NCBI GenBank assembly: GCA_963793865.1
Contig: CAWCBP010000008.1
Span: 355,182 to 419,181, forward strand
From: an uncultured delta proteobacterium
GTDB lineage: Bacteria > Desulfobacterota > WTBG01
Direction of reading: 5' to 3'
DNA: 64,000 nt
Below the pieces are notes generated by a model. That model did no database searches, had not been told where the DNA came from, and saw nothing but the letters and a program-made list of their open reading frames with translations. The position numbers and the translations under genes are program-made. This document shows positions 1 to 17,744 of the stretch, one piece after another (positions within the stretch are counted from its first letter, which is position 1; each line of letters starts with the position of its first letter).

Positions 1-3000
1 GTGACCCCAAATCCCTCCCAAATAATCTCTCCACTTTGACTCTTGGAGTCAGTCACCACACAGCGGACAGCGTAGGTCCCCTCGTCACCGGCTTGCGGGG
101 TCCACGCCCAGGTGGTGCTATTAGAACCAACCGTGGTCCAGCCCGGATCTGCTGCTTCCTTAATTGACCAGGCATAAGTGTATGGCGATGTGCCGCCTGT
201 CACCACAGTAGCCTGGAAGGTCACACTCTGGCCAACCGCGGTGCCCTCCTTTTCTCCGTTGGAGAGATACACCATGGGCTTGATGATTGCGTTAACCACC
301 TGTTTTGCCAGCAGCTGTCCCACCCGGGGATCATTGTCGGGCGGGGCGTACATTTCCCAGGTACCCGTGTACTGGTCCTGCACCGGGTTATTGGGATCAG
401 GTGCACCCACGAGGGGATCATATCCCAGGTGTCCGAAATCGCTCAAATCGTAGGCAAGCGATGGATCCAGATCATGCGCCCGGTCGGGTAGTGGGGTGAG
501 CCGGGGCGCCGGATACGGCCGCGGCAGCGGATCATCAGCGCAGCCTCCCATCACGAAGCAGCAGTCGGATGAAAGGGTCTGGGTTTCAGTGCCGTTAGCC
601 AGCGCATTGCCGAAAGGAGTCTTGTCATCGCGGATGGTCTCATTATCGCTGAAGGAGCCGACCAGATCCTTAAGCACAATCCTGCCCGCGGCGTTTCCGC
701 CGGCCCAGCTCCCGCTTTCCACCGCGACCTGTTTTATGATGCCCGTCGCTCCCGATGTTTGACCGACGAGCTTTGCCCCCGGCTCGAGAGAAACCGGGTT
801 GGTGCCGCCGCCGGCTATCTGCGAGGTTCCACCGTCAAACAGGAGTTCCCACTCGCCGCAATCCTGGTATACCCAGTTGCCCCAGTAATCGGCAAAGGGG
901 TGGCCAACGACGGGATACCTGGTGAAATCACCCACGCTCCACAGCGCCCAGTTCTTTATGCCGATCTCCTTGCCGATCTGGTTGGGAATTTCAACCATGT
1001 CCAGCGCCGAGGAGGTAATGATTTGGGTGAAGCCGACCACGATATGCTGCACCCCCTTGGTATTTACCAGGTAATCGATGGCATCCCAGTAGAGATATCC
1101 CCAGGGGTGAAATTTCCCTCTCGGGTCTGAAGGATTGGGATACCCCGCGCTTGAAGGAAATTCCTTTGTCGTCTCGTAAAGGTACTGGTGCCCCAGGTTT
1201 TCCCCGCGCATAAAAATGGTTCTTTCAAGTAACGAGTGCTCTGCTTCGGGGTTTAGTTCTTTGACACCCATGCGGGCACCGATGATGTTATCCGGGTCCA
1301 TGGTGGGATGGAGCGCGACGAGCTGGTCCTTGATGTTTTCATTCAAAACCACGGTATCGTTTAATTTGGGATCGAACACCTCGTCCAGATCGTTGATGGC
1401 ATGGTTGAGGATGATGACCCCCGTATTTGCATCAGAAACGGTCCCTGAGAATGATGCCTCTATTGCCTCCCTCTGCAGCGTGGCCAGGTCGGGATCCGCG
1501 GCAACCGGGTTGGGACTTCCGTTTAGCAGCACTTCACTGTCCTGGGTCGGTAGTGCCCCGGTAGACCTGGTCCACCCCGCCGGAAGAATGGGATAGGAGC
1601 GTTTCATGAGATCACTGTAGTCGTTGACCCAGAGGAGGGGAACGGTAATACCATAAGTGTTCTTCCATTCATCGAGGCGTTTCTGGGACATGTTTTTCAC
1701 ATCGTATGTCTTGGAGAAGCGCACGCCGCCGACGGTGAGGTCAACCATGATGATCCGGTACACACCCTGCTTGAGCAGCCGGTCTATCGGTCCGTCCACG
1801 TTGTAGCGATTCGGGTCGCAACCGGGCCAGGGACCGCCGGGCTCCCCCTCTCCGCAGTAGGTGCAGTTGGTGCCAACGCCGGGGCCGTCAGGGCCGTAGT
1901 AAATGAAGCGGGGGTAAGGATAATGGTCGATGCAGTCCCCGCACATCCATCCCGCCCAGTCAGTGGCAAAATCAATGTTATGGCTGTCGTTTTCAAGCTC
2001 GGTCTCCATGTCAGACAGCTGATCCAGAGTCAGGCCGCCGAAGGGATCTGTTCCCCCGATGCGCGGATACTCAAAATCATACTTGGCCATAAATTTTAAG
2101 GAGGACTCAGCCGTCAGCACAAAGTCCCAATAGGCGGGGTTCCAGATGGCCAGCTTGTAAACACTGTTGTTGGGATCGTATGAGAACTGCTGTACCCCGG
2201 TGTCCCAGATATACTGATCTACATTGGTATCTGTTCCGCCATGCACGGTAAACAGCACTCCCACCGGCCGGCCGGCGGCAGGGCAGGGGTTAGTGAGTGA
2301 CGTTCTGCCGAAGTCTGATTTGAACACTGCTGAATCAGTACCATCGGAATCGCTATCCCCGTCAAAATTGCCGTAGCAGGGGTTATCATAAGTGCATGGA
2401 TTGCCGCTGAGAGTACTTCTGCCGAAACTCTTCTTGAACACTGCTGCATCCGTTCCATCCTGGTCCAGGTCGCAGTCGAAATTCCCCTCGCAGTCGCAGG
2501 CATCACCCACGCCGTTCCCGCCTGCGGGAGAAGTGTCTTCCTGGTTGGTGCTGCACACACCGCCGGTTCCGCACTGGTAATCAGCTATACAGGTTCTCCC
2601 CTTCACACCTTTTGTACAGGTACCCAGATTTGGACCGTTGGGGGTTGAGGGACAATTGTCTGAACCGGTGCAGGAAACATCAGATACACCGGGATTGCAG
2701 ATGCCATCACAATCATCGTCTATATCTTCATTTGTCTGTACATGACAGTCTGTGCAATTACCCCCCCGGGGGATATGATTTTGTACTTCGTAGCATTGAG
2801 AATGGCAATTGGCGCAGCCCGACGTTTCAACCGGACCAGGCCCGGTATTTGTTCTGCAAGGAGATCCTGTGCCCCCGTTATGGCAAAGCAAACATTCGGC
2901 AGGGTCTGTTAGCCCAATTTGCGTAAAATGGAAAGCGTGAATGTTGCTGCGGGAATGGCACTGAAGGCAGTTCTGAGCTGCAGGTGGAGCGACGCATTCG

Positions 3001-3080
3001 TAGGCGAAAGCGGTGCAGGTAAACGCGGATACAATGAAAAGTAGAGTTATACCTAGTATTCCATGCTGAACCTTTTTCAT
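1..3080 (-). CDS. Large secreted multidomain protein (>1026 aa, 3' end beyond window): signal peptide, tetraheme c-type region, Cys-rich TSP3-like repeat, dockerin-like pair, ferrochelatase-like domain, PKD/Ig-like domain
   Basis: Hand translation from ATG 3080 (RBS AAGGGGGG) is open to base 1; absent from the ORF track, probably because there is no stop in the window. MKKVQHGILGITLLFIVSAFTCTAFA signal; CLQCH, CLLCH, CANCH, CTDCH; DNCP..GDACD; GNFDCDLDQDGTDAAVFKKSFGR / GNFDGDSDSDGTDSAVFKSDFGR; GVLFTVHGG..YPRIGG; GQSVTFQATVVTGGTSPYTYAWS..WTPQAGDEGTYAVRCVVTDS. Confidence 0.9.
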   Translation of the reverse strand, partial: MKKVQHGILGITLLFIVSAFTCTAFAYECVAPPAAQNCLQCHSRSNIHAFHFTQIGLTDPAECLLCHNGGTGSPCRTNTGPGPVETSGCANCHSQCYEVQNHIPRGGNCTDCHVQTNEDIDDDCDGICNPGVSDVSCTGSDNCPSTPNGPNLGTCTKGVKGRTCIADYQCGTGGVCSTNQEDTSPAGGNGVGDACDCEGNFDCDLDQDGTDAAVFKKSFGRSTLSGNPCTYDNPCYGNFDGDSDSDGTDSAVFKSDFGRTSLTNPCPAAGRPVGVLFTVHGGTDTNVDQYIWDTGVQQFSYDPNNSVYKLAIWNPAYWDFVLTAESSLKFMAKYDFEYPRIGGTDPFGGLTLDQLSDMETELENDSHNIDFATDWAGWMCGDCIDHYPYPRFIYYGPDGPGVGTNCTYCGEGEPGGPWPGCDPNRYNVDGPIDRLLKQGVYRIIMVDLTVGGVRFSKTYDVKNMSQKRLDEWKNTYGITVPLLWVNDYSDLMKRSYPILPAGWTRSTGALPTQDSEVLLNGSPNPVAADPDLATLQREAIEASFSGTVSDANTGVIILNHAINDLDEVFDPKLNDTVVLNENIKDQLVALHPTMDPDNIIGARMGVKELNPEAEHSLLERTIFMRGENLGHQYLYETTKEFPSSAGYPNPSDPRGKFHPWGYLYWDAIDYLVNTKGVQHIVVGFTQIITSSALDMVEIPNQIGKEIGIKNWALWSVGDFTRYPVVGHPFADYWGNWVYQDCGEWELLFDGGTSQIAGGGTNPVSLEPGAKLVGQTSGATGIIKQVAVESGSWAGGNAAGRIVLKDLVGSFSDNETIRDDKTPFGNALANGTETQTLSSDCCFVMGGCADDPLPRPYPAPRLTPLPDRAHDLDPSLAYDLSDFGHLGYDPLVGAPDPNNPVQDQYTGTWEMYAPPDNDPRVGQLLAKQVVNAIIKPMVYLSNGEKEGTAVGQSVTFQATVVTGGTSPYTYAWSIKEAADPGWTTVGSNSTTWAWTPQAGDEGTYAVRCVVTDSKSQSGEIIWEGFGV

Positions 3081-3160: not shown

Positions 3161-3507
3161 ATATAGAGCTAAACCTTGATTCTGTCATAGGGATGACAAA
3201 ATAACTTTTTTATAATGCTATATTAGTAAACGCGATGGATATTTATAACACGTTACTACCCTTGTCGTCAAGTATGATTCAAGATTATTTTAACATCATT
3301 TTAATAAAAAATCAAATTAATCAGCTATTTGTCAATAAAAAAAGAAAATGGGGAGGGTATGCTATTATTGTATGTATCTGTAAAAGAAAGAATTATTTGG
3401 GATGGCGTACGATCGGCGAAAGATGGGCTGCGAATAGAATAAATTGAAAAAGGGGGGATTAATTAAAATAATAGGGCATTACATACGAGGGTTCTTGCAT
3501 GGGTGGA

Positions 3508-4008
3508 TCACTCAAAGCAGAAAACGCCTTTTTTCACCCCTGCGGGAAGAGGGTTTCTTTCTTCATCAGAAACCTTGACATTTTTTGAGGTGATATCAAC
3601 ACATCGGCCTTCAGGGGCTTCTTCCGATACATCATAGCTGACATTGATGATCTGGCCCGCCTCCGCAGGAATCGCATTGCCGCTTAATGATACGAGCATT
3701 ATTCTGAAGCAGCCGTCGGAAAGCTCGTTGAATGCGCAGGTGAATCCGGAAGCATTGCCCACGGCTTCGCAACCGACACCCTGCAGGTAGTTTCCTTTAT
3801 CGCAGATATCCGCTTGAATGCCTTTGACCGTGTTGGCAGGATTGTCAAGGGTTATCTCCACCAGGTTGTTTTCACTGCCCGGGGATCCTGAGCCGTTTTC
3901 AATGGTCAGGTAGATTTCCGCCTGTTGGCAGGAGGTCAGGCAGATGATGGCCAACGGGATGATCATAAGCATTGCTTTTGAAGTAAGGGTAAAGTGTCTC
4001 TTGTTCAT
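3508..4008 (-). CDS. Cohesin-like domain lipoprotein (166 aa)
   Basis: Start moved to ATG 4008 (MNKRHF), removing the overlap with the upstream gene; lipobox LTSC; VEITLDN..VKGIQADICDKGNYL..GQIINVSYDVSEEAPEG cohesin-like beta-sandwich; paralogous to the N-terminal domain of 4046-5614. Confidence 0.75.
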   Translation of the reverse strand: MNKRHFTLTSKAMLMIIPLAIICLTSCQQAEIYLTIENGSGSPGSENNLVEITLDNPANTVKGIQADICDKGNYLQGVGCEAVGNASGFTCAFNELSDGCFRIMLVSLSGNAIPAEAGQIINVSYDVSEEAPEGRCVDITSKNVKVSDEERNPLPAGVKKGVFCFE

Positions 4009-4045
4009 GGTGGCATCCTTTGCGCTGAGCCCGGTGAACCGGAGT

Positions 4046-5614
4046 TTACTTTCTTTTGCGGACCAGCAAAATACCGGCGACGGCAATAAAAGCTGCCAGT
4101 GCAATCAGGGTACCGGGGAAAAAGGGGCTTCCGGACTTGGCGGTCCCGCCCTCAACAGCGCCGCCGTCTGCCGGGCCGGCCGGGGAAAATGCATCGCCCG
4201 GTGCCACGGTTACCAGCGCATCGCTGCTGAGATTATCCCTGCTGTCTTTTATCATAATAATGTCGAGCGATTCCTCATTGGTCCTGTTGATGCCGGCTGT
4301 ATATAAGCCCGCCCCGGTAATGGTTGAACCGATTTTACTGCTCACTTTCCATTGGTATGCACCCTCGGCGCAGGTTTTGCCGACTTTTTTTGCAGTGAAG
4401 GTTATGACATTTCCGGGAGAGATTTCCGCCGAAGAGGGGGTCAGCAGCAACGCACAACCTTCAGAAGGTTCCTTTATGCCTTCTATGGTTATGGTTGCCG
4501 TCGCGCTCATGCTCTTATTTGAGGTGTCTGTTACACGGATGGTTTCCTGAACCGGCGAGCCGGAGGCGTTGATGCCCGCAGTAAATATCCCGTCCGCATC
4601 GATGGTGCTTCCGATGCCGCTTGGCGGAAATATCTCCCACCTGTACTTTCCCGTTACCTCTCTGCCTCCCGCGATGGTTTGAGCATCGAGCGCCAGTATT
4701 CCTTTGGAATTGATTACCGACAGGGACGGTGAGATGATCAGCCGGGATTCCTCGCTTGCGGAGTCGCTTTTTGTCCCGGATGCCCCGGCGGAACGTGTAT
4801 CGCTCTCCCGGGAGGCGGCGCTGCTTTTGCTGCCGGCAGTCCGGTTGCGGGAAGAGCCTCCGGTCGAGGTAAAGGTGTCAGTCTCAGGGGAGGCTTCCTG
4901 CACGCTGGTGGTCAATCCCCCCATGGGGGTTCTTAAGCCTGCCTGTGGATTTGCCGCGGCATTCGTGGAGTTGGTGGCGGGGGTTCCGGCCGCGGGTTCG
5001 TCCCCCGCGGTTTCAGGGCTTTCCGTGTTACCGGTATCGCCGGAGCGAGGGGTGGTGGTTGTGTCATCGCCGCTGCCGCCGCTGATGCAAAACTCACCAC
5101 GTTCCGGCATGACAGTTAATCCCCTCGAATTTAGAACTCCCGGGATTTCTGGACGTGCGACTTTTGCGAGCCTTGGATTGAGCGAGATGCAGCCGGAGGG
5201 TGCATTTTCTGAAACTTCGTAAGTGATTCGGGCGATTGGTCCATTGCCAGGTGCAATGGTATCCCCGAATCCCATAAGCGATATATCAGCGCATCCGGGA
5301 GCCTGCCGGCATGCAGCGATCTTTGCATCGGTTCTGCACTCGTTCACGTAACAGGAAAGGCTGGAAGCGCGGCCCGTAGACGCGCAGCTTTTGACGGACA
5401 GATAATTGCCTTCATCACAAATATAGACATGCACCCCCGTCACGATGTCAGATGCATTGTCGAGCGTAAGCGTTATGGAACCGTTTTCTGAACCGGCCTC
5501 CGCCGAGCCGTTTCCGATGTCAAGAATGACATCTTCGGCGTATGCCCCCGGGCAAAAACAAAGGGCTGCCAGCAGACCAAGCAGTGATACAAGGGAGGGA
5601 TTCTTAGATAGCAT
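4046..5614 (-). CDS. Cell-surface protein: signal peptide, cohesin-like domain, Ser/Thr/Gly-rich linker, two Ig-like repeats, C-terminal TM anchor with basic tail
   Basis: Signal ending AYA; ITLTLDNASDIVTGVHVYICDEGNYL..GPIARITYEVSENAPSG; low-complexity S/T linker; repeated GKYRWEI..IGSTIDADGIFTAGIN / GAYQWKV..IGSTITGAGLYTAGIN; FPGTLIALAAFIAVAGILLVRKRK. Confidence 0.8.
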   Translation of the reverse strand: MLSKNPSLVSLLGLLAALCFCPGAYAEDVILDIGNGSAEAGSENGSITLTLDNASDIVTGVHVYICDEGNYLSVKSCASTGRASSLSCYVNECRTDAKIAACRQAPGCADISLMGFGDTIAPGNGPIARITYEVSENAPSGCISLNPRLAKVARPEIPGVLNSRGLTVMPERGEFCISGGSGDDTTTTPRSGDTGNTESPETAGDEPAAGTPATNSTNAAANPQAGLRTPMGGLTTSVQEASPETDTFTSTGGSSRNRTAGSKSSAASRESDTRSAGASGTKSDSASEESRLIISPSLSVINSKGILALDAQTIAGGREVTGKYRWEIFPPSGIGSTIDADGIFTAGINASGSPVQETIRVTDTSNKSMSATATITIEGIKEPSEGCALLLTPSSAEISPGNVITFTAKKVGKTCAEGAYQWKVSSKIGSTITGAGLYTAGINRTNEESLDIIMIKDSRDNLSSDALVTVAPGDAFSPAGPADGGAVEGGTAKSGSPFFPGTLIALAAFIAVAGILLVRKRK

Positions 5615-5826
5615 GGTGTGTTATCTCTCCAAGACTGAAAAAATGCCCCATGACGGGTAAAATAAGCTGACCAGGTAATAATCAATTATTTGCATGAGTG
5701 TCAACTATAGTCCCCGATTTCTATCTATTGCCTTTCGAACGATTATAGATGAATCAACCCATGTCCGGCAAATCATATTTAGTGAACGTTTCGGTATATT
5801 AATAAGTTTTATTTACATGTATCTTT

Positions 5827-7812
5827 TTAATAAGTTGGCGGGAGGTTACTCCCCGCCTGATTTTTCTTCAGCAACTCCAAAAGATCCCGGGGTATGGTGT
5901 GCCCGAGTTTTTGTATCGTTTCACATTCCTGTGCGGCTCGTGAATAATTACCCTGCAGGCAGTGAACATAAGCAAGATTAATATGTCCGGTGACCAGGGC
6001 TGGATTAATAGCCAGTCCTTTTGTAAGGTATACGAGTGCCTGATCAAAACTGTTTGTATTGAGATAGGCGGCACCGAGGTTGATGAGTGTTTCGGCGTGG
6101 AGCGGCTTTATTAAAAGCACCTTTTGATAGGCGGCAATGGCATCTTCATAACTGCCCTTGTTTAAAAAGGCATTGCCGAGGTTATAGCGAGCCTCAATAT
6201 ATCTGGGGCTGATGGACAAAGCCTTTGCGTATGCCGCTATGGCGCTTTCGAGCCTGTCTTCCTTGGCATAAACGATGCCCAGGTTGTTGAGCGTCTTGGG
6301 ATGATTGGGCTGCAGGGCCAGTGCCTGCTCATACACGGTGGCCGCGTCTTTTAATCTCCCCTGCCTGGTATAGGCCGCCCCCAGGTTATTATATCCTTCC
6401 AGATGCTCGGGGTTGATGCTCAGGGCTTTTTTAAAGTATTCCTCGCCCCGGGCCGGATTTCCCTCCTGGGTGACAATGATGCCGAGATTGTTATACGCCA
6501 TCCAGGATCGGGGATTTTTTTTGAGCGTGTCCATCCACAGCGCGGTTGAGTCGCGATAGGCATATGACTGCTGCCAGGTTAATATCCCCAGCATGAGCAG
6601 GACGATAATCCCGATGCATGTTTCCGCGTTTCGCAATCGCGCTGCCGCGCGGCTGCTTACCGTGCCTGTCCATGCGTCGAATTGCCGCCGTATGCCGCCC
6701 ACAAACACCGCGATCAGTCCCAGGCTGGCAAGGTACTGGTAATGATCGGCAACGAATGAGTAGCGCATGGTGTAGTAATTGATGAACCCCAGCATGGGGG
6801 CCAGGGTTATGGCGAACACGCACACGCCGGTCAACGGTCCGCGCCCCCATCTGTTTCTCATGTGCCACAGGACAAAGAGAAGCAGCACCAGCGCGAGGTG
6901 CCATCCGTACTGTTCCAACGCAAAGGGATCCAGCGTCCACTGGGGGTAGGAAAAGGTGAGATTCACCGGCCAGAGCAGCTTGAGCATATAAAAGCACAGG
7001 GCCCGGCCTGAAAGAAGCACGCGCTGGAAAAATGAAAAACTGAAGTCTTCTCCTATCGTTCCCTGATGATTAGCTTCCCACCAGCTTGAGAGCAGGCCCA
7101 TTGCCAAACCGGCTGCCATGAAGGGAACAAGCAGGCTTACCTCTCTCCGGGTTATGCGGCCTCTCCTCCACCAGCCCAGCAGGAGTATGACCAGCGGCAA
7201 GGTCAGGATCACCGTCTTGCTCAGGAGCCCCAGGGCAAAAAGAACGAAAGCCTGGATATACCAACGCCAGTGCCGGTTCTCCTCATAGCGCAGGTAACTC
7301 ATCAACGCCAGCAGGCAGAACATTCCCGATAAGGTGTTCTTCAGCTCCGTAACCCATGCCACCGACTCCACATGCACCGGATGAAGCGCAAAGATTGCGG
7401 CAGCCATCCAGGCCCCCTGCAGCTTGAGCCGGGTGAAGAGCAGGAAAACAAGCATGGCATTGAGGGCGTGCAGCGCTATGTTGACCAGGTGATATCCCGC
7501 GGGATTGAGATCCCACAGCCGGTGCTGAATCAGGAGCACGGTATAGGTGAGGGGGAAGTATTGAGAAGGGCTCTCGGTGGTGAACCAGATGCGCCGCAGC
7601 CCATCGGGGGCGGTTAACAGGTGGTTTTCAGTAACGTAGAGATCATCATCCCAGATGAAACCGGCGTGCGTTGCCGGATAATAAGCGATGCAGGCAATAA
7701 TAAAGAGCACGATGAGCGGGCGCCAATCCCATCTCTTGCCGGGAATAACAGCACGCGGTGTTTGCGGTGCAGGTCTATCAGCCCCTGCTTGTTTTTTAGA
7801 TTTCTTTCCCAT
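5827..7812 (-). CDS. TMTC-like GT-C membrane glycosyltransferase with C-terminal TPR repeats
   Basis: FIWDDDLYV luminal acidic motif, LHPVHVESVAWVTE, multiple TM helices, about 7 TPRs (AYNNLG, TLNNLG, ARYNLG). Start ATG 7812 or GTG 7860. Confidence 0.85.
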   Translation of the reverse strand: MGKKSKKQAGADRPAPQTPRAVIPGKRWDWRPLIVLFIIACIAYYPATHAGFIWDDDLYVTENHLLTAPDGLRRIWFTTESPSQYFPLTYTVLLIQHRLWDLNPAGYHLVNIALHALNAMLVFLLFTRLKLQGAWMAAAIFALHPVHVESVAWVTELKNTLSGMFCLLALMSYLRYEENRHWRWYIQAFVLFALGLLSKTVILTLPLVILLLGWWRRGRITRREVSLLVPFMAAGLAMGLLSSWWEANHQGTIGEDFSFSFFQRVLLSGRALCFYMLKLLWPVNLTFSYPQWTLDPFALEQYGWHLALVLLLFVLWHMRNRWGRGPLTGVCVFAITLAPMLGFINYYTMRYSFVADHYQYLASLGLIAVFVGGIRRQFDAWTGTVSSRAAARLRNAETCIGIIVLLMLGILTWQQSYAYRDSTALWMDTLKKNPRSWMAYNNLGIIVTQEGNPARGEEYFKKALSINPEHLEGYNNLGAAYTRQGRLKDAATVYEQALALQPNHPKTLNNLGIVYAKEDRLESAIAAYAKALSISPRYIEARYNLGNAFLNKGSYEDAIAAYQKVLLIKPLHAETLINLGAAYLNTNSFDQALVYLTKGLAINPALVTGHINLAYVHCLQGNYSRAAQECETIQKLGHTIPRDLLELLKKNQAGSNLPPTY

Positions 7813-7882
7813 ATGAAAAAAAGCTTTTAGAGTGTCCTGCAGTGCCGGAGATGGCGTCACGGTAAACTTCAGACGCTTCTCA

Positions 7883-7912
7883 ATTGTATCGCAGTCTGTT
7901 CTTGTGAATCAA
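7883..7912 (-). promoter_or_regulatory. sigma70-like promoter for the GT-C/TPR gene
   Basis: TTGATT-N18-TACAAT on minus strand. Confidence 0.45.
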
Positions 7913-7957
7913 TGGATTTTTTTAAAACATCGCCGGGGCGCAACTTCCTGCAAAGGC

Positions 7958-7986
7958 TTGTCTGTCATGCGTTTTTATGCTACAAT
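7958..7986 (+). promoter_or_regulatory. sigma70-like promoter (extended -10) for the AlkP operon
   Basis: TTGTCT-N17-TACAAT with TGn before the -10. Confidence 0.55.
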
Positions 7987-8060
7987 CTACAGCCATTGTT
8001 GAATCTGAAACAGCGTGTTGAAAAAGTGCTCAGGAGAACAGGTTTGATCGAAGCCAACAT

Positions 8061-10190
8061 ATGAATTCATCAAGAGTTGCACGTTTAAGCATAACTGCAG
8101 CCGCGCTGCTTCTTGTCCTTGTGCCCCTGAGGGCACATGCCTATATCGGGCCGGGGGCGGGCTTTGCGGTTGCCGGTTCATTCCTGGTCATGTTCGCGGC
8201 GATGGTATCGGCCCTGTTTCTTATGCTGACCTGGCCGGTCCGCTACGTGGTGAGGGCCATACGTTTCAGAAGGGTTTTTGCCCGCAGCCGGGTCAAGAAA
8301 GTGGTGGTGCTGGGGCTCGACGGCCTCGATTATGCGCTGACCGGAAAGTGGATTGCCGAGGGCAAGCTTCCCAACTTTGCAAAGCTGCGCGATCAGGGCT
8401 GTTTCAAACCCCTTGCCTCAACCGTTCCGCCCATTTCCCCGGTTGCCTGGTCATCCTTTCAGACCGGCACCAACCCGGGGAAGCACAACATCTTCGATTT
8501 CCTCACCCGCGACCGGAGAACCTATGCGGCAAAGCTGAGCTCTACAGCCATCAGGGAATCGTCACGCGCGATCAGCCTCGGGAAATATCGCATCCCGTTG
8601 GGATCGGCCGACATACGCCTGCTGCGCAAAGGGCTTCCCTTCTGGAAAATTCTCGGCGATCAGGGGATATTCAGCAGCGTCATTCGCGTTCCCATCACCT
8701 TTCCTCCTGAAAAGTTTTACGGCATCCAGCTCTCGGCCATGTGCGTGCCCGACCTGCGCGGCACCCAGGGAATGTTTTCATATTATACAACCGAGCCGGG
8801 CGGGAACGGCCGCAGCACCGCGGGCGAAAATTTTCAGGTGCAGAAAAACGGCAACACGGTGAAGGGAGAGCTGGTGGGACCCAAAAATCCCATGCTGCAG
8901 GCGGGCGGGCTGCTCACCTGCCCCTTTGCGGTCACGCTTAACGGTGATGAGGTTGCCACCCTCAGAATCAGCGGGAAGACGGTGAGGCTCAGGGCGGGCG
9001 AGTACTCTGACTGGATAAAGGTTGTTTTTAAGGCCCCGCTCGGTGTCAGGATAGCGGGGATCTGCAGGTTCCTGCTGAAGAGCACCGCCCCGGAGTTCAA
9101 ATTGTATGTTACTCCCATTAATATCGACCCGGAAAAGCCGGCGATGCCCATCAGCCATCCCCCGGTGTATGCCACCTATCTTTCCAAGCGGCAGGGTCCC
9201 TACGCCACGCTCGGGCTTGCCGAAGACTCGTGGGCGCTGAACGAGAAACTGATAAGCGATGACGATTTTCTGGAGCAGTGCCTGCAGCACGACGGCGAAC
9301 GGGAGAGGATGTTTTTTGATTCCCTGGACAATATACGGCGGGGGCTGTGCGTCTGCGTTTTTGACGGGACGGACCGGGTTCAGCACACCTTCTGGCGGCA
9401 GCTGGACAGGGATCATCCCGCTCACGAGGACAAGGGCTCAGCACCGGAACATTCGGCCATTGAGGAAATATACAAGCGTGCCGATGCGCTGCTTGGCAGG
9501 ACCCTTGATAAATGCAGGGACAAGGACACCCTGCTCATGGTCATTTCCGATCACGGGTTCAGTTCATTCCGTTACGGCGTTGACCTGAATCGCTGGCTTG
9601 AGGAAAACGGCTATCTGAAGTTGAAAGAGGGAGGCGGTGACAAAGAGAATCTTGCTGCGGTCGACTGGTCACAAACCCGGGCCTATGCCATCGGCCTTGC
9701 AGGACTCTACCTGAACCTCAAGGGGCGAGAAGGGCAGGGCATCGTCGATCCCCGGACCGAGGCGCCGGCGCTGCGGGATGAAATAGCGCGGAAGCTGCTC
9801 AGCCTCAGGGACCCCATACGGAACCAGCCCGCGGTAAAGGGTGTTTATAACGCCTGGACGGTATACAGCGGGCCTTACCGGGAGGATGCCCCGGACCTGA
9901 TCGTCGGCTATCATGCGGGCTATCGCGCCTCGTGGGAAACAGCGGTGGGAAAGGTGACCGGCGGCATTTTCCACGACAATGTGAAGGCCTGGAGCGGGGA
10001 TCACTGCATTGACCGGTCACTGGTTCCCGGCGTGCTTTTCTGCAACCGCAGGATTGCTGATGAGCACCCGAGGCTCATGGACATCGGCCCCACCGTGCTC
10101 GATCTGTTTGGTGTAAAGGTACCCGCCCACATGGACGGCAAACCGCTCGCCGTGGCCATCGGCGGAAAGGACGCCCCGTCGGCGGCATAG
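8061..10190 (+). CDS. Alkaline phosphatase superfamily protein (type I phosphodiesterase/NPP-like, COG3379-like), membrane-anchored
   Basis: VVVLGLDG, PPISPVAWSSFQTG nucleophile loop, FDGTDRVQH, ISDHG, WSGDHC; N-terminal signal then YIGPG plus TM helix. Confidence 0.85.
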   Translation: MNSSRVARLSITAAALLLVLVPLRAHAYIGPGAGFAVAGSFLVMFAAMVSALFLMLTWPVRYVVRAIRFRRVFARSRVKKVVVLGLDGLDYALTGKWIAEGKLPNFAKLRDQGCFKPLASTVPPISPVAWSSFQTGTNPGKHNIFDFLTRDRRTYAAKLSSTAIRESSRAISLGKYRIPLGSADIRLLRKGLPFWKILGDQGIFSSVIRVPITFPPEKFYGIQLSAMCVPDLRGTQGMFSYYTTEPGGNGRSTAGENFQVQKNGNTVKGELVGPKNPMLQAGGLLTCPFAVTLNGDEVATLRISGKTVRLRAGEYSDWIKVVFKAPLGVRIAGICRFLLKSTAPEFKLYVTPINIDPEKPAMPISHPPVYATYLSKRQGPYATLGLAEDSWALNEKLISDDDFLEQCLQHDGERERMFFDSLDNIRRGLCVCVFDGTDRVQHTFWRQLDRDHPAHEDKGSAPEHSAIEEIYKRADALLGRTLDKCRDKDTLLMVISDHGFSSFRYGVDLNRWLEENGYLKLKEGGGDKENLAAVDWSQTRAYAIGLAGLYLNLKGREGQGIVDPRTEAPALRDEIARKLLSLRDPIRNQPAVKGVYNAWTVYSGPYREDAPDLIVGYHAGYRASWETAVGKVTGGIFHDNVKAWSGDHCIDRSLVPGVLFCNRRIADEHPRLMDIGPTVLDLFGVKVPAHMDGKPLAVAIGGKDAPSAA

Positions 10191-10217
10191 AGGCCGGGTG
10201 CCGGAGGCATAGCGTAT

Positions 10218-12245
10218 ATGAAAAATATCAGCAGAAGAAATTTCATCAAGCGGTCCGCATGTGCCGCCGCCGCACTGGCAACGGGCATGGGCGTCGCCCC
10301 GGCATTTGCCGTCAGGAAAGGACGGGCAAACGCAGCGGGGAAACAAGTCATCGTGATCGGTTTTGACGGCATGGATCCCGGGCTGGCCCGGCAATTGATG
10401 AACGCCGGCAGGCTGCCCAACCTGGAGCGCTTGCGAAGGCAGAACGGATACCGCGTGCTCGGGACCAGCATCCCTCCGCAGAGCCCCGTGGCCTGGGCCA
10501 ACTTCATCAACGGCGCCGGGCCCGGTTCCCACGGCATCTTCGACTTTATCCACCGTGATCCTGAGCGGCAGGCCTATCCGTTTTTCGCCGCCGCTGAAAC
10601 GGTACCGGGCGAGGGCTATCTTGAATGGGGCGAGCATAAACTGCAGCTCGACTTCTGGCCCTTCAATCATAAGCCGGCCAGAACCGTGCTGCAGAGACAG
10701 GGGACTCCCTTCTGGGATTATCTTGACCGGGAGGGAATTCCCTCCACCTTTTATGACCTGCCCTCGAACTATCCGCCCAGCCCTTCGCGCTACGGCAACC
10801 ATCGATGCCTCTCCGGCATGGGGACGCCCGACCTGCAGGGAAGCTATGGGACCTACCAGCACTTTGCCGAGGACGGGCCCGCGCAGACCCAATCCGAGGG
10901 GGGCGGAAAGCGGTCGAGAATCCATTTTGAAGGTGATACCTCCCTTCCGCTGGCACTTCTGGGGCCGAGGAACACCCTGCTCAAGGATCCCCGGGATGCC
11001 GTCATCAATTTTACCCTTCACCGAGACCGGGACGCGGGCGCCGCGGTGGTGGAGATCCAGAAGCACACCCTGGTTCTCAAACAGGGGGAGTGGAGTCCCT
11101 GGATACCCCTTGATTTCGGGCTTTCCACTCCGGCGATGCTGCCGGATAAACACGTGAGCGGCATCTGCCGCTTCTACCTGCAGGAAGTTTCCCCCTGCTG
11201 CCGGCTGTATGTGAGCCCCATCAATATCAATCCCGCCAGCCCGGCGATCCGGATTACCGAGCCCGAAGAATTCTCTCAGGAAATGGCGCACCGCCTGGGC
11301 CTTTTCGCCACCACCGGATTCCAGGAGGACCACAAGGCCCTGTCGAATAAAATTTTTACCGATGACGAGTTTGCCCGGCAGGCCGACCATGTGCTGCAGG
11401 AACGCATGAACCTGCTCGATTATGCCTTGCGGAACTATGATGACGGACTGCTGTTTTTCTACTTCTCCAGCACCGACCTCCAGTCCCACATGTTCTGGTG
11501 GGACTGCGACGCGACGCATCCCGTCCGGTCCCGGGAAGCGGCGATACACTACTTCGGGCAGCTGCAGGATCTCTATGCCCGGATGGACGCGGTGGTGGGT
11601 GATCTGCTCAAGCGCTACGGAGACAGGGCCCACATCATGGTCATGAGCGATCACGGCTTTTCCAATTTCGTGCGCCAGTTCAACCTGAACACCTGGCTGC
11701 GCGATAACGGCTATCTCGGCTCCCCCGACAGCACCTCCATCATGGACCGGGGCTTCGAATGGTCAAAAAGCCGCGCCTTCGGCCTGGGCATCAACAGCCT
11801 CTATCTCAATCTCAAGGGGCGGGAGCGTTACGGTACCGTGGAACCCGGCCCTGAGCGGGAGGGACTGCTGGAAGAGCTTGCGCGCAAGCTGGTGGCCGTC
11901 CGTGACCGCGACGGCAGGCAGGTCATCCGGGCGGTCCACCGGGCCGACAAAGTGTACGCGGGTACGGCCACGCGTTACGCCCCCGATTTGATTATCGGCT
12001 ACAGCCGCGATTTCCGCGCTTCATGGAAAACGGTGCTCGGGGACATGACCGATGAGGTGATGCTCGATAATGAGTCGGCCTGGAGCGCCGACCACTGCAT
12101 GGATGCGTCCGAAGTGCCCGGGGTGTTATTCAGCAACCGGCCCATCGCGGCGCCGAACCCCGCGCTTGCGGACCTGGCGCCCTCGATACTTACAGCGTTC
12201 GGTTTAGGGATACCATCGGACATGACCGGCAGAAATATTTTTTAG
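10218..12245 (+). CDS. Alkaline phosphatase superfamily protein, Tat-exported paralog
   Basis: SRRNFIK twin-arginine signal; IGFDG, PPQSPVAWANF, MSDHG, WSADHC. Confidence 0.85.
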   Translation: MKNISRRNFIKRSACAAAALATGMGVAPAFAVRKGRANAAGKQVIVIGFDGMDPGLARQLMNAGRLPNLERLRRQNGYRVLGTSIPPQSPVAWANFINGAGPGSHGIFDFIHRDPERQAYPFFAAAETVPGEGYLEWGEHKLQLDFWPFNHKPARTVLQRQGTPFWDYLDREGIPSTFYDLPSNYPPSPSRYGNHRCLSGMGTPDLQGSYGTYQHFAEDGPAQTQSEGGGKRSRIHFEGDTSLPLALLGPRNTLLKDPRDAVINFTLHRDRDAGAAVVEIQKHTLVLKQGEWSPWIPLDFGLSTPAMLPDKHVSGICRFYLQEVSPCCRLYVSPININPASPAIRITEPEEFSQEMAHRLGLFATTGFQEDHKALSNKIFTDDEFARQADHVLQERMNLLDYALRNYDDGLLFFYFSSTDLQSHMFWWDCDATHPVRSREAAIHYFGQLQDLYARMDAVVGDLLKRYGDRAHIMVMSDHGFSNFVRQFNLNTWLRDNGYLGSPDSTSIMDRGFEWSKSRAFGLGINSLYLNLKGRERYGTVEPGPEREGLLEELARKLVAVRDRDGRQVIRAVHRADKVYAGTATRYAPDLIIGYSRDFRASWKTVLGDMTDEVMLDNESAWSADHCMDASEVPGVLFSNRPIAAPNPALADLAPSILTAFGLGIPSDMTGRNIF

Positions 12246-12339
12246 CAGGCGGTTGAAAAACACCCATCTGCTTTGTGGCTCAAAGGGAGGGGCTTTTGAC
12301 GCCACAACATTTCTACAACCTTTTAGGGCGAGATGTTCA

Positions 12340-12528
12340 ATGGCCAAGATCAAGATTGATTCCAAGCTCTTTGACCGCGCGAAAGAAGCGGCGGAGAAGG
12401 CGGGATACGCCAGCACCGAAGAGTTTATCACCCACCTTATTGAGAAAGAGGTCGCGCGGCTGGAATCGCCGCCTGCCGGGGATGATGCCGTCGCGGACCA
12501 GCTTCGGGGCCTGGGATATATTGAATGA
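12340..12528 (+). CDS. Small protein (62 aa), ribbon-helix-helix/CopG-like N-terminus with C-terminal LRGLGYIE tail
   Basis: Start moved to ATG 12340 (MAKIKIDSKLFDRAKEAAEKAGYASTEEFITHLIEKE); stop overlaps next start (ATGA). Confidence 0.7.
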   Translation: MAKIKIDSKLFDRAKEAAEKAGYASTEEFITHLIEKEVARLESPPAGDDAVADQLRGLGYIE

Positions 12529-13370
12529 CTGAACTTTTGCTGCGGACGCTGACGGGGATAAACACGGTCACCAATGCTCTCGGCGATATGCTGCAGGCGC
12601 CGGTTGCGACAATGCCGGGGTGGCTTTCCATCACCATCCTGTCCGCGGCGGTCGGGGTGCTTGCCCTGATTATTTTCAAATACACCTCCAATCAGAAGGC
12701 GATCGGCCGCGTCAGGGACGACATCAAGGCCAACCTCCTGGCCGTCAAGCTCTTCAGGGACAATTTCTCCGTGGCCTTCCGGTCGCAGGCACGGGTCATG
12801 GCTGCCGCCGTAAAGCTGCTGGTTTATTCCCTGGTGCCGATGCTGGTTATCATCCTGCCGGTGTGCCTGGTGCTTGCCCAGATGGGTTCGTGGTATCAGG
12901 TCCGCCCTGTGCGGCCGGGGGACGGGCAGGTCACGGTACAATTAAAAATGAACCATCGCGCCGGCACCCTCCCGCAGGTTTCGCTTGACCCCCTCCCCGG
13001 TATCCGCCTCCTCACCGGGCCGGTTCGGGTCCCCAGCAGGGATGAGATTTATTTCAGGCTTCAGCCGCTGGAGTACGGGAACCACACCCTCGTTTTTCAT
13101 ATCGGAGACGCCCGGTATGAAAAGCAGCTGGCCGTCGGCGAAGGCTTCATGCGGGTAAGCCCCAGGCGGCCGGGCGCAAACCCGGGGGATGTTTTGCTGT
13201 ATCCCATGGAAAAACCGTTCTCTTCCGGCGATCACGTTGGGTCGATCAGCATTGCCTATCCGGCACGGGAATCGAAAATTTTTGGAACCGACTGGTGGAT
13301 TGTCTATTTTTTTCTGGCCTCCATGGCATTCGCCATGCTCTGTAAACCTTTTCTGAAAGTGAGGATATAA
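12525..13370 (+). CDS. Membrane protein resembling DUF106/EMC3-TMCO1 family with inserted soluble beta-domain
   Basis: TM1, coiled segment (FKYTSNQKAIGRVRDDIKANLL), TM2 (SLVPMLVIILP), C-terminal WWIVYFFLASMAFAMLCKPFLKV. Confidence 0.6.
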   Translation: MTELLLRTLTGINTVTNALGDMLQAPVATMPGWLSITILSAAVGVLALIIFKYTSNQKAIGRVRDDIKANLLAVKLFRDNFSVAFRSQARVMAAAVKLLVYSLVPMLVIILPVCLVLAQMGSWYQVRPVRPGDGQVTVQLKMNHRAGTLPQVSLDPLPGIRLLTGPVRVPSRDEIYFRLQPLEYGNHTLVFHIGDARYEKQLAVGEGFMRVSPRRPGANPGDVLLYPMEKPFSSGDHVGSISIAYPARESKIFGTDWWIVYFFLASMAFAMLCKPFLKVRI

Positions 13371-13373
13371 GCA

Positions 13374-13949
13374 ATGGAGCAGAAGCCGTTTATTACCATT
13401 GTTTCGGGCCTTCCGCGCTCGGGGACATCCATGATGATGCAGGTGATTGAAGCCGGGGGCGTTCCCGCCCTCACCGATAACCTGCGCACCAGGGATGAGG
13501 ACAACCCCCAGGGATATTATGAATTCGAGCCGGTAAAGAAGACCAGGGAGGACCCATCCTGGGTCCCGGGGGCACGCGGAAAGGTGGTCAAGATGGTGTA
13601 CCGCCTGCTGTATGATCTGCCCGGTGACCAGGAGTACCGCGTCATCTTCATGCGCAGGAACATCGATGAGGTCCTGACCTCGCAGAAAAAAATGCTTCAG
13701 CGCTCGGGCAAGCCGGGCGCGGCCATCAGCGATGAAAGATTGAAAGAGCTGTTTCTGGCCGAGCTGGACAAGTTCGATCGCTGGATAGCGGAACAAAAGA
13801 ACTTCTCGATCATCGAGGTTGATTACAGCGACATGGTTGCCTCCCCCGGGACGCAGTGCAAGCGCATTAATGAATTTCTCGGAGGGGTCCTTGATAGTGA
13901 CCGCGCGGCCGCGGCGGTGAATCCGTCCTTGTACCGCAACCGGAGCTGA
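13374..13949 (+). CDS. Sulfotransferase family protein (P-loop, PAPS-binding)
   Basis: IVSGLPRSGTSMMMQ 5'-PSB loop; VIFMRRNIDEVLTSQ 3'-PB-like motif; no signal peptide. Confidence 0.85.
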   Translation: MEQKPFITIVSGLPRSGTSMMMQVIEAGGVPALTDNLRTRDEDNPQGYYEFEPVKKTREDPSWVPGARGKVVKMVYRLLYDLPGDQEYRVIFMRRNIDEVLTSQKKMLQRSGKPGAAISDERLKELFLAELDKFDRWIAEQKNFSIIEVDYSDMVASPGTQCKRINEFLGGVLDSDRAAAAVNPSLYRNRS

Positions 13950-14063
13950 TATTCCGGGGACACCATACGCAATGTGATGTTGCATGGAACGGAATGCTCT
14001 TTTTTATGCACTATTACGTATGGTGTCCCCAAATGACTTGAAGGTAAAAGTCAACAGGTAAGC

Positions 14064-14094
14064 AAAGGGCCTGGCATTGAGCCGGGCCCTTTTT
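14064..14094. terminator. Bidirectional terminator between convergent operons
   Basis: AAA-GGGCCTGGC-ATTGA-GCCGGGCCC-TTTTT. Confidence 0.7.
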
Positions 14095-14118
14095 GATTCA
14101 ATCGTCTCAATGCGGCGG

Positions 14119-16275: not shown

Positions 16276-17744
16276 GGTTTTGAACAGCTTTCCCGGGCAA
16301 TATGCGGGGGTCCTGAGTGAGTTCCGTGCATATAAGGATTAAGCGGGCCGTCCGCATAGCGTGCCGGGGCAAACGGCATATATTCCTTCTGGTGAAACTG
16401 CTGCACCACCTCGTCGGCGAAAAACGCCCCCAGCGGGGTAAGCTCAACGCGGGACCCGGTTTCGCTGATAAGCCCGAACTCTTTAAGGCCTGCAAAAATG
16501 CCGGGGAAGGCTTCGGCCAGGGGAACCCCGGTCACCGCTTCAAAATGCTTTTTTCTGATAAAATAGTTCTTCAGCGGCAGTATGATTGCCCACCGCGTCT
16601 GCTCATCTTTGCTGCGCACCAGGCCGCGATTGAGCGGCAGGCGCCCCGCCTCAACGGCGCCATAGTACTCGTCAAAGTACTGCACGTTCAGGCTGAAGCG
16701 GTCGCGCATGCTGCTGAACGCGGTCAGCCCGAACCCTATCTGGTCGAGCAGGGCGCAGCACTGGTTGAAGGCGTACAGCGAAATGTCCGACCGTTTCCTG
16801 GTAAACACCCGCCGCAGGTTCTCGTGAAAGCCGCTGCGGGCGAGCAGGTCGATGGCCACCTGCTTCATCAGGAACATGTCTTCAACCGCTATCATTTCAT
16901 CGGGACGGATCTCCCGCACCTTTTGAATCACCCCCTGCTGGTCCCCGTAGGGTATGACCTTGAGCCGGTAAAACTGGATTTCGTCGACGCCGGCGCCCAG
17001 CGCCTGCTCCAGCACCGCCACCCAGTTTTCCATGGTCTGACCGGGATACCCGAAGATGAATTCAATGTTCACCTTGTAGCCGTATTCCTGCGAGTTCCTG
17101 ATGGACTCAAGCGCAACCGCGGCATCATGTGAACGGTTCATCCGTTTGAGTATGGCGTCATTGAAGGACTGCACCCCGATGGTCAGGCGGTTGACGCCGA
17201 ACGACCTCATGATGCGCAGCCGCTCCCTGCCTTCGGGACCCACCAGGGTTGAAGGATCAACGTCATAATTGAACTGCCGGCATCCGCCCATGTCCAGCCG
17301 GGAGGTGAAGAAGGTCAGGAAGCGCTCCAGCTGTGCCGGGGTCAGGTCGGTCGGCGTCCCGCCGCCGACCAGGATGGAGCGCGCTTTAATGGAGCTGATT
17401 CCCAGCCGGCGCAGGTAGAGATCCATCTCCCTTTCCAGCGCAGTGAGGTAGCGGTCTTTTTCCGCATCAGCCGCGCCGTAGAGGGAGGGATAGTGGCAGA
17501 ACACGCAGCGGCGCATGCAAAAGGGAATGTGCACGTAGAGATCAAACATGCCGTCCGGCGGCAGGGTGTACGTGTCAAACAGCGCTTCTTCGGTAACCGG
17601 CGGATACATGGTAATCGGCGGATAGTGGACCGAGGGGAAGAAGTCCCCGTCCATGGGAACGAGCCCCGCCTTCCTGAGCCGCCGGTAATCGTCCAGTCTC
17701 GGGCGGGCCGCATCCAGCATTTCCCTGATTTCGCCGCTACGCAT
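16272..17744 (-). CDS. HemN-like (class C type) radical SAM enzyme
   Basis: YVHIPFCMRRCVFCHY CX3CX2C, VGGGTPT, RLTIGVQSF, FIFGYPGQT; start moved to ATG 17744, overlapping upstream stop. Confidence 0.85.
   Translation of the reverse strand: MRSGEIREMLDAARPRLDDYRRLRKAGLVPMDGDFFPSVHYPPITMYPPVTEEALFDTYTLPPDGMFDLYVHIPFCMRRCVFCHYPSLYGAADAEKDRYLTALEREMDLYLRRLGISSIKARSILVGGGTPTDLTPAQLERFLTFFTSRLDMGGCRQFNYDVDPSTLVGPEGRERLRIMRSFGVNRLTIGVQSFNDAILKRMNRSHDAAVALESIRNSQEYGYKVNIEFIFGYPGQTMENWVAVLEQALGAGVDEIQFYRLKVIPYGDQQGVIQKVREIRPDEMIAVEDMFLMKQVAIDLLARSGFHENLRRVFTRKRSDISLYAFNQCCALLDQIGFGLTAFSSMRDRFSLNVQYFDEYYGAVEAGRLPLNRGLVRSKDEQTRWAIILPLKNYFIRKKHFEAVTGVPLAEAFPGIFAGLKEFGLISETGSRVELTPLGAFFADEVVQQFHQKEYMPFAPARYADGPLNPYMHGTHSGPPHIARESCSKP

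Follow-up and report, generated by a model that had tools for sequence, protein, structure and literature searches.

A predicted exported variant of the ferrochelatase fold, with its pocket rewritten as His/His/Leu, in uncultured bacteria of anoxic habitats

Ferrochelatase is among the best-studied tetrapyrrole enzymes, and its place is taken to be in biosynthesis and in the cytoplasm (or an organelle). Here we analyse a gene at the left edge of a 64,000-nucleotide stretch of DNA from an uncultured delta proteobacterium (contig CAWCBP010000008.1, positions 355,182 to 419,181; this whole stretch is termed here the window). Profile alignments and structure models indicate that its central domain has the class II chelatase/ferrochelatase fold in a new, exported form. 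The domain belongs to a compact, widespread family that lacks library annotation; it keeps the ferrochelatase scaffold, is predicted to be always exported, and has its pocket rewritten in a fixed manner, as His/His/Leu. The reading preferred here, to which we give about an even chance, is that it is an extracytoplasmic module for binding or handing off tetrapyrroles, probably with bis-His ligation, and not a canonical ferrochelatase. If heme or another tetrapyrrole is bound outside the cell, the family would represent a new protein class for heme or porphyrin capture by anaerobes, beside CbiK(P), FetB and HmuY-type proteins, and would offer a tangible way into the question of how bacteria of anoxic sediments cope with tetrapyrroles from outside; its operon link to bilin-reductase-like genes in non-phototrophs bears, moreover, on the current debate over the origin of ferredoxin-dependent bilin reductases (FDBRs).

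The ferrochelatase fold of the core and its collinear homology to HemH are established, at the level of models and profiles, by Foldseek searches with two structure models and by a collinear profile alignment compared with a reversed control. Library searches do not reveal this relationship: Pfam and NCBIfam searches with the whole protein and with its core give no match to the core at E values up to 10 (PF00762 included), and a phmmer search of PDB sequences with the whole protein finds a sole match in the C-terminal immunoglobulin (Ig)-like tail and none in the core. A profile of the family itself reaches PDB sequences with a best E of about 0.5; ten of these twelve matches are ferrochelatases aligned on the second motif described below, and at this E value B. 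subtilis ferrochelatase/CpfC is aligned exactly on its 'YEAIGGISPL' segment. With E. coli HemH alone as the target, hhalign places the fifth motif correctly but insignificantly (probability 2%). When the family profile is aligned instead with three ferrochelatases--B. subtilis HemH (310/310 identical to PDB 1ak1), E. coli K-12 HemH and human FECH (PDB alignment)--hhalign returns one collinear alignment of 303 columns with an E of 3.6e-6, in which model residues 7-482 are paired with HemH residues 1-310 (that is, with all of B. subtilis HemH); the column-reversed control gives an E of 0.012 over 19 columns.

AlphaFold2 models were obtained for residues 262-940 of the window protein (model 1; pLDDT 87.7, pTM 0.87) and for a minimal, 581-residue family member, P0006 (model 2; pLDDT 88.8), the pTM of both being 0.87-0.88. 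In Foldseek searches of the PDB the top 44 matches to model 1 are all ferrochelatase/CpfC structures, from Listeria, Bacillus, yeast and human (E 7.5e-9 to 4.8e-5, about 430 columns, target-normalised TM about 0.6), everything else being at E 1e-2 or worse; for model 2, too, ferrochelatases fill the top 44 places (E 4.6e-9 to 2.2e-6, with TM reaching 0.71). Target-normalised TM values across both runs are 0.5-0.71. The periplasmic CbiK of Desulfovibrio vulgaris (2xvx) follows at E 0.049 for model 1 and 3.6e-3 for model 2, and SirB at E 0.033 for model 2. The lobes are Rossmann-like and surround a cleft, and in each a pocket His comes after the first strand: His280 follows strand 12-21 and His560 strand 292-298 (model numbering). 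The original prediction, made by reading the sequence, had proposed a HemH/CpfC fold and had named in advance, as grounds for abandoning it, profile and structure searches that return no class II chelatase; both kinds of search return chelatases.

The five motifs on which that prediction was based are all encoded by the minus strand and share a frame within a single open reading frame (ORF), in the order and at the positions given for them (Table 1). The span that it flagged, 970-2261, is too short: the core occupies 852-2279 and the conserved module extends to about position 261. Pocket residues were assigned by combining the profile alignment with the secondary-structure register of the model, which would place His280 and His560 on opposite faces of the cleft; conservation was counted over 84 ORFs of the family, taken from GTDB species representatives in the Thermodesulfobacteriota, Gammaproteobacteria and Alphaproteobacteria. 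On this map the His of the second lobe, predicted to be kept, corresponds to the catalytic His183 of the B. subtilis enzyme and is invariant, and the D-H-x-E-T segment is changed as predicted, with Leu693 at the position of the catalytic Glu264. Absent from the prediction was a second pocket His, His280 of 'VHGG', which replaces the proximal Tyr13/Met76 on the opposite porphyrin face. In CpfC, the proximal Tyr12 ligates the coproheme iron, and the distal His182 lies 3.2 Å away, held back by Glu263 (PMC7340540).

The description of the active site as degenerate does not fit the conservation of the changed residues, the Leu occurring in 83/84 and the His at the Tyr13 position in 81/81 sequences. 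Judged from these patterns, the pocket is one that was remodelled and then fixed, a different site under strong constraint; because the changes are fixed family-wide among some 20 other invariant pocket residues, they suggest a selected new function rather than decay. The invariant charged residues along the mapped pocket are Asp345, Asp447, Arg454, Lys457, Asp570, Lys572 and Glu697 (Asp447, Arg454 and Lys457 each being present in 84/84 sequences, as is Cys409, with Cys421 in 83/84). The acidic residues among them, Asp345, Asp447 and Glu697, map near the pocket in the alignment, while the canonical carboxylate partner of the His is Leu. Porphyrin-contact elements that are kept comprise the positions of Trp230 and Tyr47 and the GG-x-x-P loop.

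Table 1. Modules, motifs and mapped pocket residues of the window protein (aa, amino acid residues; Bs, B. subtilis; fractions are family ORFs with the residue)
Feature	Residues (aa)	Window position	Strand	Remarks
Whole coding sequence	at least 1026 aa	3..3080	(-)	ATG at 3080; C-terminus cut at left window edge
Sec-type signal peptide	1-26	3003..3080	(-)	Also conserved in L010 and P0121; probable signal peptidase I (SPase I) site after 'AFA'
Small multiheme c-type cytochrome module		2721..3002	(-)	Four CxxCH (aa 38, 63, 89, 109; span 38-113) and three conserved extra His
Cys-rich linker with two Asp-rich Ca-binding-type repeats	121-265	2286..2720	(-)	'NFDxDxDxDGxDxAVFKxxFGR'; TSP3/dockerin-like by eye
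Ferrochelatase (HemH/CpfC)-fold core	268-743	852..2279	(-)	Four large loop insertions relative to HemH
Beta-sandwich insertion, 95 aa	744-838	567..851	(-)	Seen in a subset of the family only
Family-specific C-terminal extension	839-940	261..566	(-)	Conserved 'CCFxMGGC', 'PYPxPR', 'DPSLAY', 'GHLGYDP', 'QYTGTW' and terminal helix
C-terminal Ig-like domain (He_PIG/PKD-like)	944 to end	3..251	(-)	Cut by window edge
GVLFTVHGG	274-282	2235-2261	(-)	Read in ORF
FEYPRIGGTDPF	336-347	2040-2075	(-)	Read in ORF; aligned with HemH 'RYEAIGGISPL'
LLKQGVYRIIMVDL	435-448	1737-1778	(-)	Read in ORF
GVIILNHAI	554-562	1395-1421	(-)	Read in ORF
DAIDYLVNTKGVQHIVVGFTQIITSSALDMVEIP	666-699	984-1085	(-)	Read in ORF
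His280 ('VHGG', end of beta-1)	280	2241..2243	(-)	= Tyr13 (Bs) / Met76 (human), proximal porphyrin-site residue; His 81/81
His560 (end of first strand, lobe 2)	560	1401..1403	(-)	= catalytic His183 (Bs) / His263 (human); 84/84
Asp570-Pro571-Lys572	570-572	1365..1373	(-)	Aligned with ferrochelatase 'GDPYP'; 84/84
Trp660	660	1101..1103	(-)	= active-site Trp230 (Bs HemH); 67/67 in first set, 74/84 in wider set
Ser690	690			= Asp261; Asp in most family members
Ser691	691			= His262
Leu693	693	1002..1004	(-)	= catalytic Glu264 (Bs) / Glu343 (human); Leu in 83/84
Glu697	697	990..992	(-)	= Asp268 (Bs), same helix; 84/84

Homologs of the core form at least 637 clusters at 90% identity, all of them labelled 'hypothetical' and without Pfam domains, and the literature search found no description of the family. 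Searched exhaustively with the family profile in HMMER, 1.84 billion representatives yield 190 matches, mostly fragments of the same family, among which there is no canonical chelatase or ferrochelatase. Within GTDB species representatives the family is found at 192 places in three bacterial classes, always in metagenome-assembled genomes (MAGs), with several paralogs per genome in the Thermodesulfobacteriota; its hosts are all uncultured and its habitats are anoxic freshwater, wetland and sediment. The window DNA is itself present in freshwater, wetland, sediment and estuary metagenomes; no RNA runs containing the window sequence were found.

The prediction that the window protein is exported and carries its own hemes is supported by its signal peptide and its four CxxCH motifs. 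The notion of a chelatase-like domain working beside its own hemes holds, however, for the sub-lineage represented by the window protein, its 91%-identical relative L010 and the 986-residue homolog P0121, not for the family at large: the four-heme module and the Asp-rich repeats are limited to these three proteins plus the N-terminally truncated P0001 and P0002, and no CxxCH occurs in the 120 closest homologs from the first search. All four CxxCH and three further His line up in the window protein, L010 and P0121, as in a multiheme c-type cytochrome; Pfam Cytochrome_C7 matches this module below threshold (E 0.0058).

Export itself extends to the family. All of the N-terminally complete homologs (110/110) start with a hydrophobic signal sequence; a lipobox Cys directly precedes the core in at least 52 of the 110, others having SPase I-type sites, and no Tat (twin-arginine) motif occurs among the 110. 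About half to two-thirds of the family are predicted lipoproteins, the remainder being Sec-secreted. Six conserved Cys are consistent with disulfides, and accessory domains found in the family include Ig-like and TSP3 domains, an IPTL-CTERM signal (P0089), a carboxypeptidase-regulatory-like tail (P0124) and the beta insertion. The accessory domains, the conserved Cys and an exosortase gene adjoining that of P0104 point to a location on the outer face of the inner membrane or farther out. Four Cys of the window protein--Cys741, Cys840, Cys841 and Cys847 (858-860 and 540-563, minus strand)--are conserved where the core ends and within the extension that follows ('DCG…CCFxMGGC'). In Foldseek the alignment with human ferrochelatase continues through this region (about 560 columns), and the position of these Cys recalls the [2Fe-2S] site of the animal enzyme. 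Sec export and the lack of a Tat motif argue for disulfides here instead of a [2Fe-2S] cluster.

Evidence of another kind comes from gene neighbourhoods, which were surveyed by calling ORFs in 81 loci, clustering the neighbours within 6 kb of the family gene and annotating the recurrent clusters. The clearest signal concerns FDBRs, whose substrates are linear tetrapyrroles. In 15 of the 81 loci, from at least 12 MAGs, the 6-kb neighbourhood includes FDBR-like genes (PF05996, 55 bits, the gathering score being 31, and a weak RCC-reductase echo); often one or two of them come immediately after the family gene, on its strand. This frequency (18%) compares with a rough random expectation of about 1%, an estimate that assumes, on our own part, some 3 FDBR-like genes per 4000-gene genome. 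In three species (L032, L037 and L041; approximately positions 3400-16200) the family gene is embedded in a tight, co-directional, operon-like string: upstream of the family gene, which here encodes a lipoprotein, are MMPL/RND, DUF1302, DUF1329 and BNR/Ycf48-like genes, in that order, and downstream are an FDBR-like gene, one for a 150-residue protein without assignment, a PNPOx-like gene, a flavin-reductase-like gene whose product ends in a protochlorophyllide-reductase-type (PCP_red) tail, in some cases an OYE-type reductase gene, and an MFS gene. Partial strings occur in seven other loci (L001, L006, L021, L029, L046, L050 and L053). The FDBR-like enzymes and the PNPOx-like and OYE-type flavoenzymes are cytoplasmic. 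The FDBR-like genes of these non-phototrophic Thermodesulfobacteriota are often two tandem paralogs (255 and 240 residues). Two papers on pre-PcyA FDBRs in heterotrophs make no mention of a ferrochelatase-like neighbour.

The MMPL-DUF1302-DUF1329-BNR genes correspond to an AmeABCD-type envelope system for apolar compounds (PMC6394551), for which Pseudomonas co-fitness data exist (bioRxiv 10.1101/2020.07.04.188060). In six loci (L029, L032, L037, L041, L050 and L053) members of all four families stand beside the family gene and point in its direction, whereas the systems described from Castellaniella and Pseudomonas come without genes for a ferrochelatase-like lipoprotein or for bilin-reductase-like enzymes. 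Taken together, this context gives independent support for a tetrapyrrole-related role and favours such a role over plain metal sensing.

How the family relates to known chelatases can be seen by comparing it with three groups. With ferrochelatase/CpfC (B. subtilis 1ak1, L. monocytogenes 6sv3/9f0f, human 1hrk; PF00762; EC 4.98.1.1 / 4.99.1.9) it shares the two-lobe class II chelatase fold, collinearity over the full length, His183, the 'Y-x-x-I-G-G-x-x-P' loop, the Asp-Pro of 'GDPYP', the Trp230 position, an acidic side chain where HemH has Asp268, and a C-terminal extension containing Cys, aligned by Foldseek to the one in the human enzyme. It differs in its low identity (10-14%) and lack of any profile-library match; in having Leu for Glu264, His for Tyr13/Met76 and other residues for Lys87/His88 and the propionate-binding Arg; in its four large loop insertions (about 170 extra residues) and 100-residue extension; in being exported (by Sec or as a lipoprotein); and in not being linked to heme-biosynthesis genes. 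Defined by catalytic Glu, profile thresholds and location, the ferrochelatase family does not include these sequences. That they are nonetheless ordinary heme-biosynthetic HemH/CpfC proteins overlooked by the profile libraries is effectively refuted: such a view accounts for the fold and collinearity only, and conflicts with the absence of a PF00762 or NCBIfam match and of the catalytic Glu, with a signal peptide or lipobox in every N-terminally complete member, with the insertions and extension just mentioned, and with the lack of a canonical ferrochelatase among the 190 exhaustive HMMER matches.

The premise of the original prediction that ferrochelatases are cytoplasmic is sound for HemH/CpfC but not for class II chelatases at large, in that D. 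vulgaris CbiK(P) (PDB 2xvx) is periplasmic and Porphyromonas gingivalis FetB/IhtB (PDB 9B86) is located at the outer membrane (PMC13065792); FetB is surface-associated, binds haemin and has Co/Mn chelatase activity, with no reverse chelatase activity on haemin (PMC13065792). The family shares with this second group a class II chelatase fold outside the cytoplasm, CbiK(P) and FetB being binders of metallated porphyrins and a precedent, among anaerobes, for the export of proteins with a chelatase fold. They differ from it by their CbiK-type signatures, their size (about 260-270 residues), their chelatase activity (Co, Mn), their other reported contexts, and a Foldseek similarity to the family models that is marginal, as opposed to 1e-8 to 1e-9 for ferrochelatases; no CbiK Pfam match was found in the window protein. 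The third group consists of the small symmetric class II chelatases CbiX-S and CfbA, together with SirB. They use a His that closes beta-1 on its C-terminal side, and in the homodimeric forms both halves contribute this His, which faces the cleft. Such a pair is analogous to His280 and His560, and SirB is a weak Foldseek match; CbiX-S, CfbA and SirB differ, however, in that they are small enzymes of biosynthesis in the cytoplasm and have a second His and a Glu alongside the first His, and they gave no sequence match or strong structural match to the family.

In the preferred reading, of a module that binds or hands off tetrapyrroles outside the cytoplasm, the cleft would still accept a tetrapyrrole, and with a His on both faces and no Glu to hold back the distal one the pocket would be suited to a metallated tetrapyrrole, such as heme, held by two axial His. 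The canonical ferrochelatase reaction would be unlikely because the Glu needed for porphyrin deprotonation and metal insertion is absent; instead, the domain would capture, hold or hand on an external tetrapyrrole at the cell envelope. Within the window sub-lineage, where the domain is fused behind a four-heme module and Ca-binding-type repeats, the bound tetrapyrrole might be reduced or oxidised in place, and the protein is possibly displayed on the cell surface. Several observations weigh against this. Several CpfC propionate ligands are replaced (Arg30/31 by Ser/Tyr, Arg46 by Glu, Ser54 by Asp and Lys87/His88 by Ile/Tyr), so the ligand may not be a dicarboxylic porphyrin, or may bind otherwise. 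Active small class II chelatases of the CbiX-S/CfbA type also have a symmetric His/His pair, so loss of Glu264 is no proof of lost catalysis. The window copy, moreover, has no partner genes within the 64 kb (a search for them found only a distant ORF like those for aldehyde:ferredoxin oxidoreductase (AFOR), 46748-47521), the operon evidence coming from other sub-lineages, paralogous or orthologous; and the FDBR link is limited to the 15 loci, the gamma- and alphaproteobacterial loci having other neighbours, such as DUF1838 and FAD_binding_4 genes.

The alternatives to this binding or hand-off role differ in how much of the ancestral chemistry they retain. At one extreme the domain could be a working extracytoplasmic chelatase or dechelatase, in which His280 and His560, with Asp345, Asp447 or Glu697, insert or remove the metal of a tetrapyrrole outside the cell, be it heme iron, the Mg of chlorophyll derivatives or Mn/Co as for FetB. 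The c-hemes fused to the domain in the window protein could then serve as an electron source, for instance to reduce Fe(III)-heme before the iron is released. This is a real possibility, though we judge it a good deal less probable than binding or hand-off. It is consistent with the chelatase scaffold and its invariant metal-side His, with the many invariant charged residues of the mapped pocket and with the existence of active exported CbiK-type chelatases such as FetB (PMC13065792); the four-heme fusion fits redox-assisted demetallation, and the downstream FDBR-like, PNPOx-like and OYE enzymes suggest further processing of the macrocycle. On the other hand, Lys87/His88 are also lost, FetB lacks reverse chelatase activity on haemin (PMC13065792) and most family members have no redox module.

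At the other extreme tetrapyrroles would play no part. His280, His560 and the carboxylates might form a periplasmic site for free metal ions, serving in binding, as a metallochaperone or in sensing, on a scaffold resembling chelatases and periplasmic binding proteins. The same two positions of CpfC/HemH do flank a metal site, and metals are bound there without porphyrin (PDB titles 2ac2, 9kth, 9ktc and 9ktd); lipoprotein anchoring is typical of substrate-binding proteins, and there is weak Foldseek similarity (E about 1e-2) to solute-binding proteins of ABC transporters. Those matches, however, are about six orders of magnitude weaker than the matches to ferrochelatases, the porphyrin-contact elements (Trp230, Tyr47 and the GG-x-x-P loop) are kept, and the neighbours are bilin-reductase-like genes and a transporter for apolar compounds rather than metal ABC, ZIP or CDF transporters; of the readings still considered, we regard this one as the least probable. 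Only slightly less unlikely is a job unrelated to tetrapyrroles, in which the domain binds or modifies another apolar ligand of the Ame-type transporter or is a structural or adhesive surface module; porphyrins would then not be what keeps the pocket residues conserved. DUF1302/DUF1329/BNR/RND systems are tied to terpenes, fatty esters and other apolar compounds, the propionate-binding Arg are not conserved, and surface-protein accessory domains (Ig-like, TSP3, IPTL-CTERM and the beta insertion) are common in the family; what counts against it is that two independent tetrapyrrole-family neighbours recur (the FDBR-like gene, above its Pfam threshold, and the PNPOx-like split barrel) and that the axial positions of the ancestral porphyrin site are precisely those taken by the invariant His/His pair.

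A broader proposal, which we consider speculative and improbable as a whole, is that the family constitutes the extracytoplasmic entry to an undescribed anaerobic route for salvage or breakdown of environmental tetrapyrroles (heme or chlorophyll-derived detritus in anoxic sediments). The pigment would be caught, and perhaps demetallated, by the ferrochelatase-derived protein at the surface or in the periplasm, with fused c-hemes giving electrons in the window lineage; the AmeABCD-type machine would carry the pigment across the envelope; and the cytoplasmic bilin-reductase-like, PNPOx-like and OYE-type enzymes would reduce it.

Other neighbours recur outside this string. Gamma- and alphaproteobacterial loci almost always have a DUF1838 gene adjoining the family gene, with a median gap of 28 bp (L057, L058, L064, L066, L067, L072, L073, L077, L085 and L086), and often an FAD_binding_4 oxidase gene nearby, a conserved partner set distinct from that of the Thermodesulfobacteriota operon. 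AFOR genes lie within 6 kb in six loci (L006, L007, L009, L023, L028 and L035), in L007 directly downstream on the same strand, and a cluster for a xanthine-dehydrogenase-type Mo enzyme is divergent from the family gene in L002-L004. A role in molybdate or tungstate handling, considered on account of these AFOR and Mo/W-enzyme neighbours, was rejected, since neither the fold nor the stronger FDBR link supports it. Also dropped was a 'chlorophyllase-like' cluster of neighbours in five loci: its L010 member is a beta-propeller-like secreted protein with the shared Asp-rich repeats, which probably are what hold the cluster together. In L008 a true PF00762 ferrochelatase gene, unusually long (463 residues; 1-759, minus strand), occurs 6 kb upstream of P0104, which may be coincidence. 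P0104 itself is followed by an exosortase (EpsH) gene, a 198-residue ORF and a PMT_2/TPR gene (L008, 9386-12362); a PMT_2 and TPR membrane protein of the same kind is encoded near the flagged gene at 5827-7860 (minus strand) of the window. Together with the IPTL-CTERM sorting domain of P0089, this arrangement suggests that some family members undergo exosortase-type surface sorting or glycosylation.

Several features of the window protein outside its pocket may also be recorded. Some six C-terminal residues are expected beyond the window edge, judged from L010 ('…WEGFAVTAP') and P0121 ('…FVVSAP'). The Ig-like domain, carried by about half of the homologs, matches Pfam He_PIG below threshold (E 9e-4) and a phage decoration protein in the PDB (E 0.004). 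The beta insertion ('GEWEL…TGxTSGATGVIK…') resembles a mobile insert, a related module being located elsewhere in the P0124 core (at residues ~175-250, in the loop before 'WxGCDPERYNVDGP'); Foldseek matches it weakly to phage baseplate proteins (E about 0.02, about 100 columns). In L010 a run of masked N at about 2870-2970 splits the orthologous gene into two ORFs, an artefact of the record and not a frameshift. Past the left window edge, as seen in L010, lies a gene for a secreted protein that ends in the same pair of Asp-rich repeats; Pfam TSP_3 matches this protein with E 9e-5 and 22.5 bits, under the gathering score of 25.

Just upstream of the flagged gene the window encodes two secreted proteins (3508-4008 and 4046-5614, both minus strand) with similar N-terminal modules of about 130 residues. 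The first, of 166 residues, matches Pfam Cohesin nearly end to end, below threshold (E 0.012), and the other, of 522 residues, ends in a hydrophobic helix and 'VRKRK', possibly a sorting or anchor signal; these upstream modules, together with the Asp-rich repeats, hint at a cohesin/dockerin-like surface assembly. Farther away, 14119-17816 (minus strand) encodes a 718-residue protein with two methyltransferase domains, followed by a 514-residue radical-SAM protein with a weak HemN_C tail; the latter, 11 kb from the flagged gene, is of the HemN/HemW/ChuW-like class, which includes anaerobic heme-handling enzymes. Between these regions, on the plus strand, are tandem paralogs of about 700 residues (8061-10190 and 10218-12245) with type I phosphodiesterase/nucleotide pyrophosphatase domains (PF01663).

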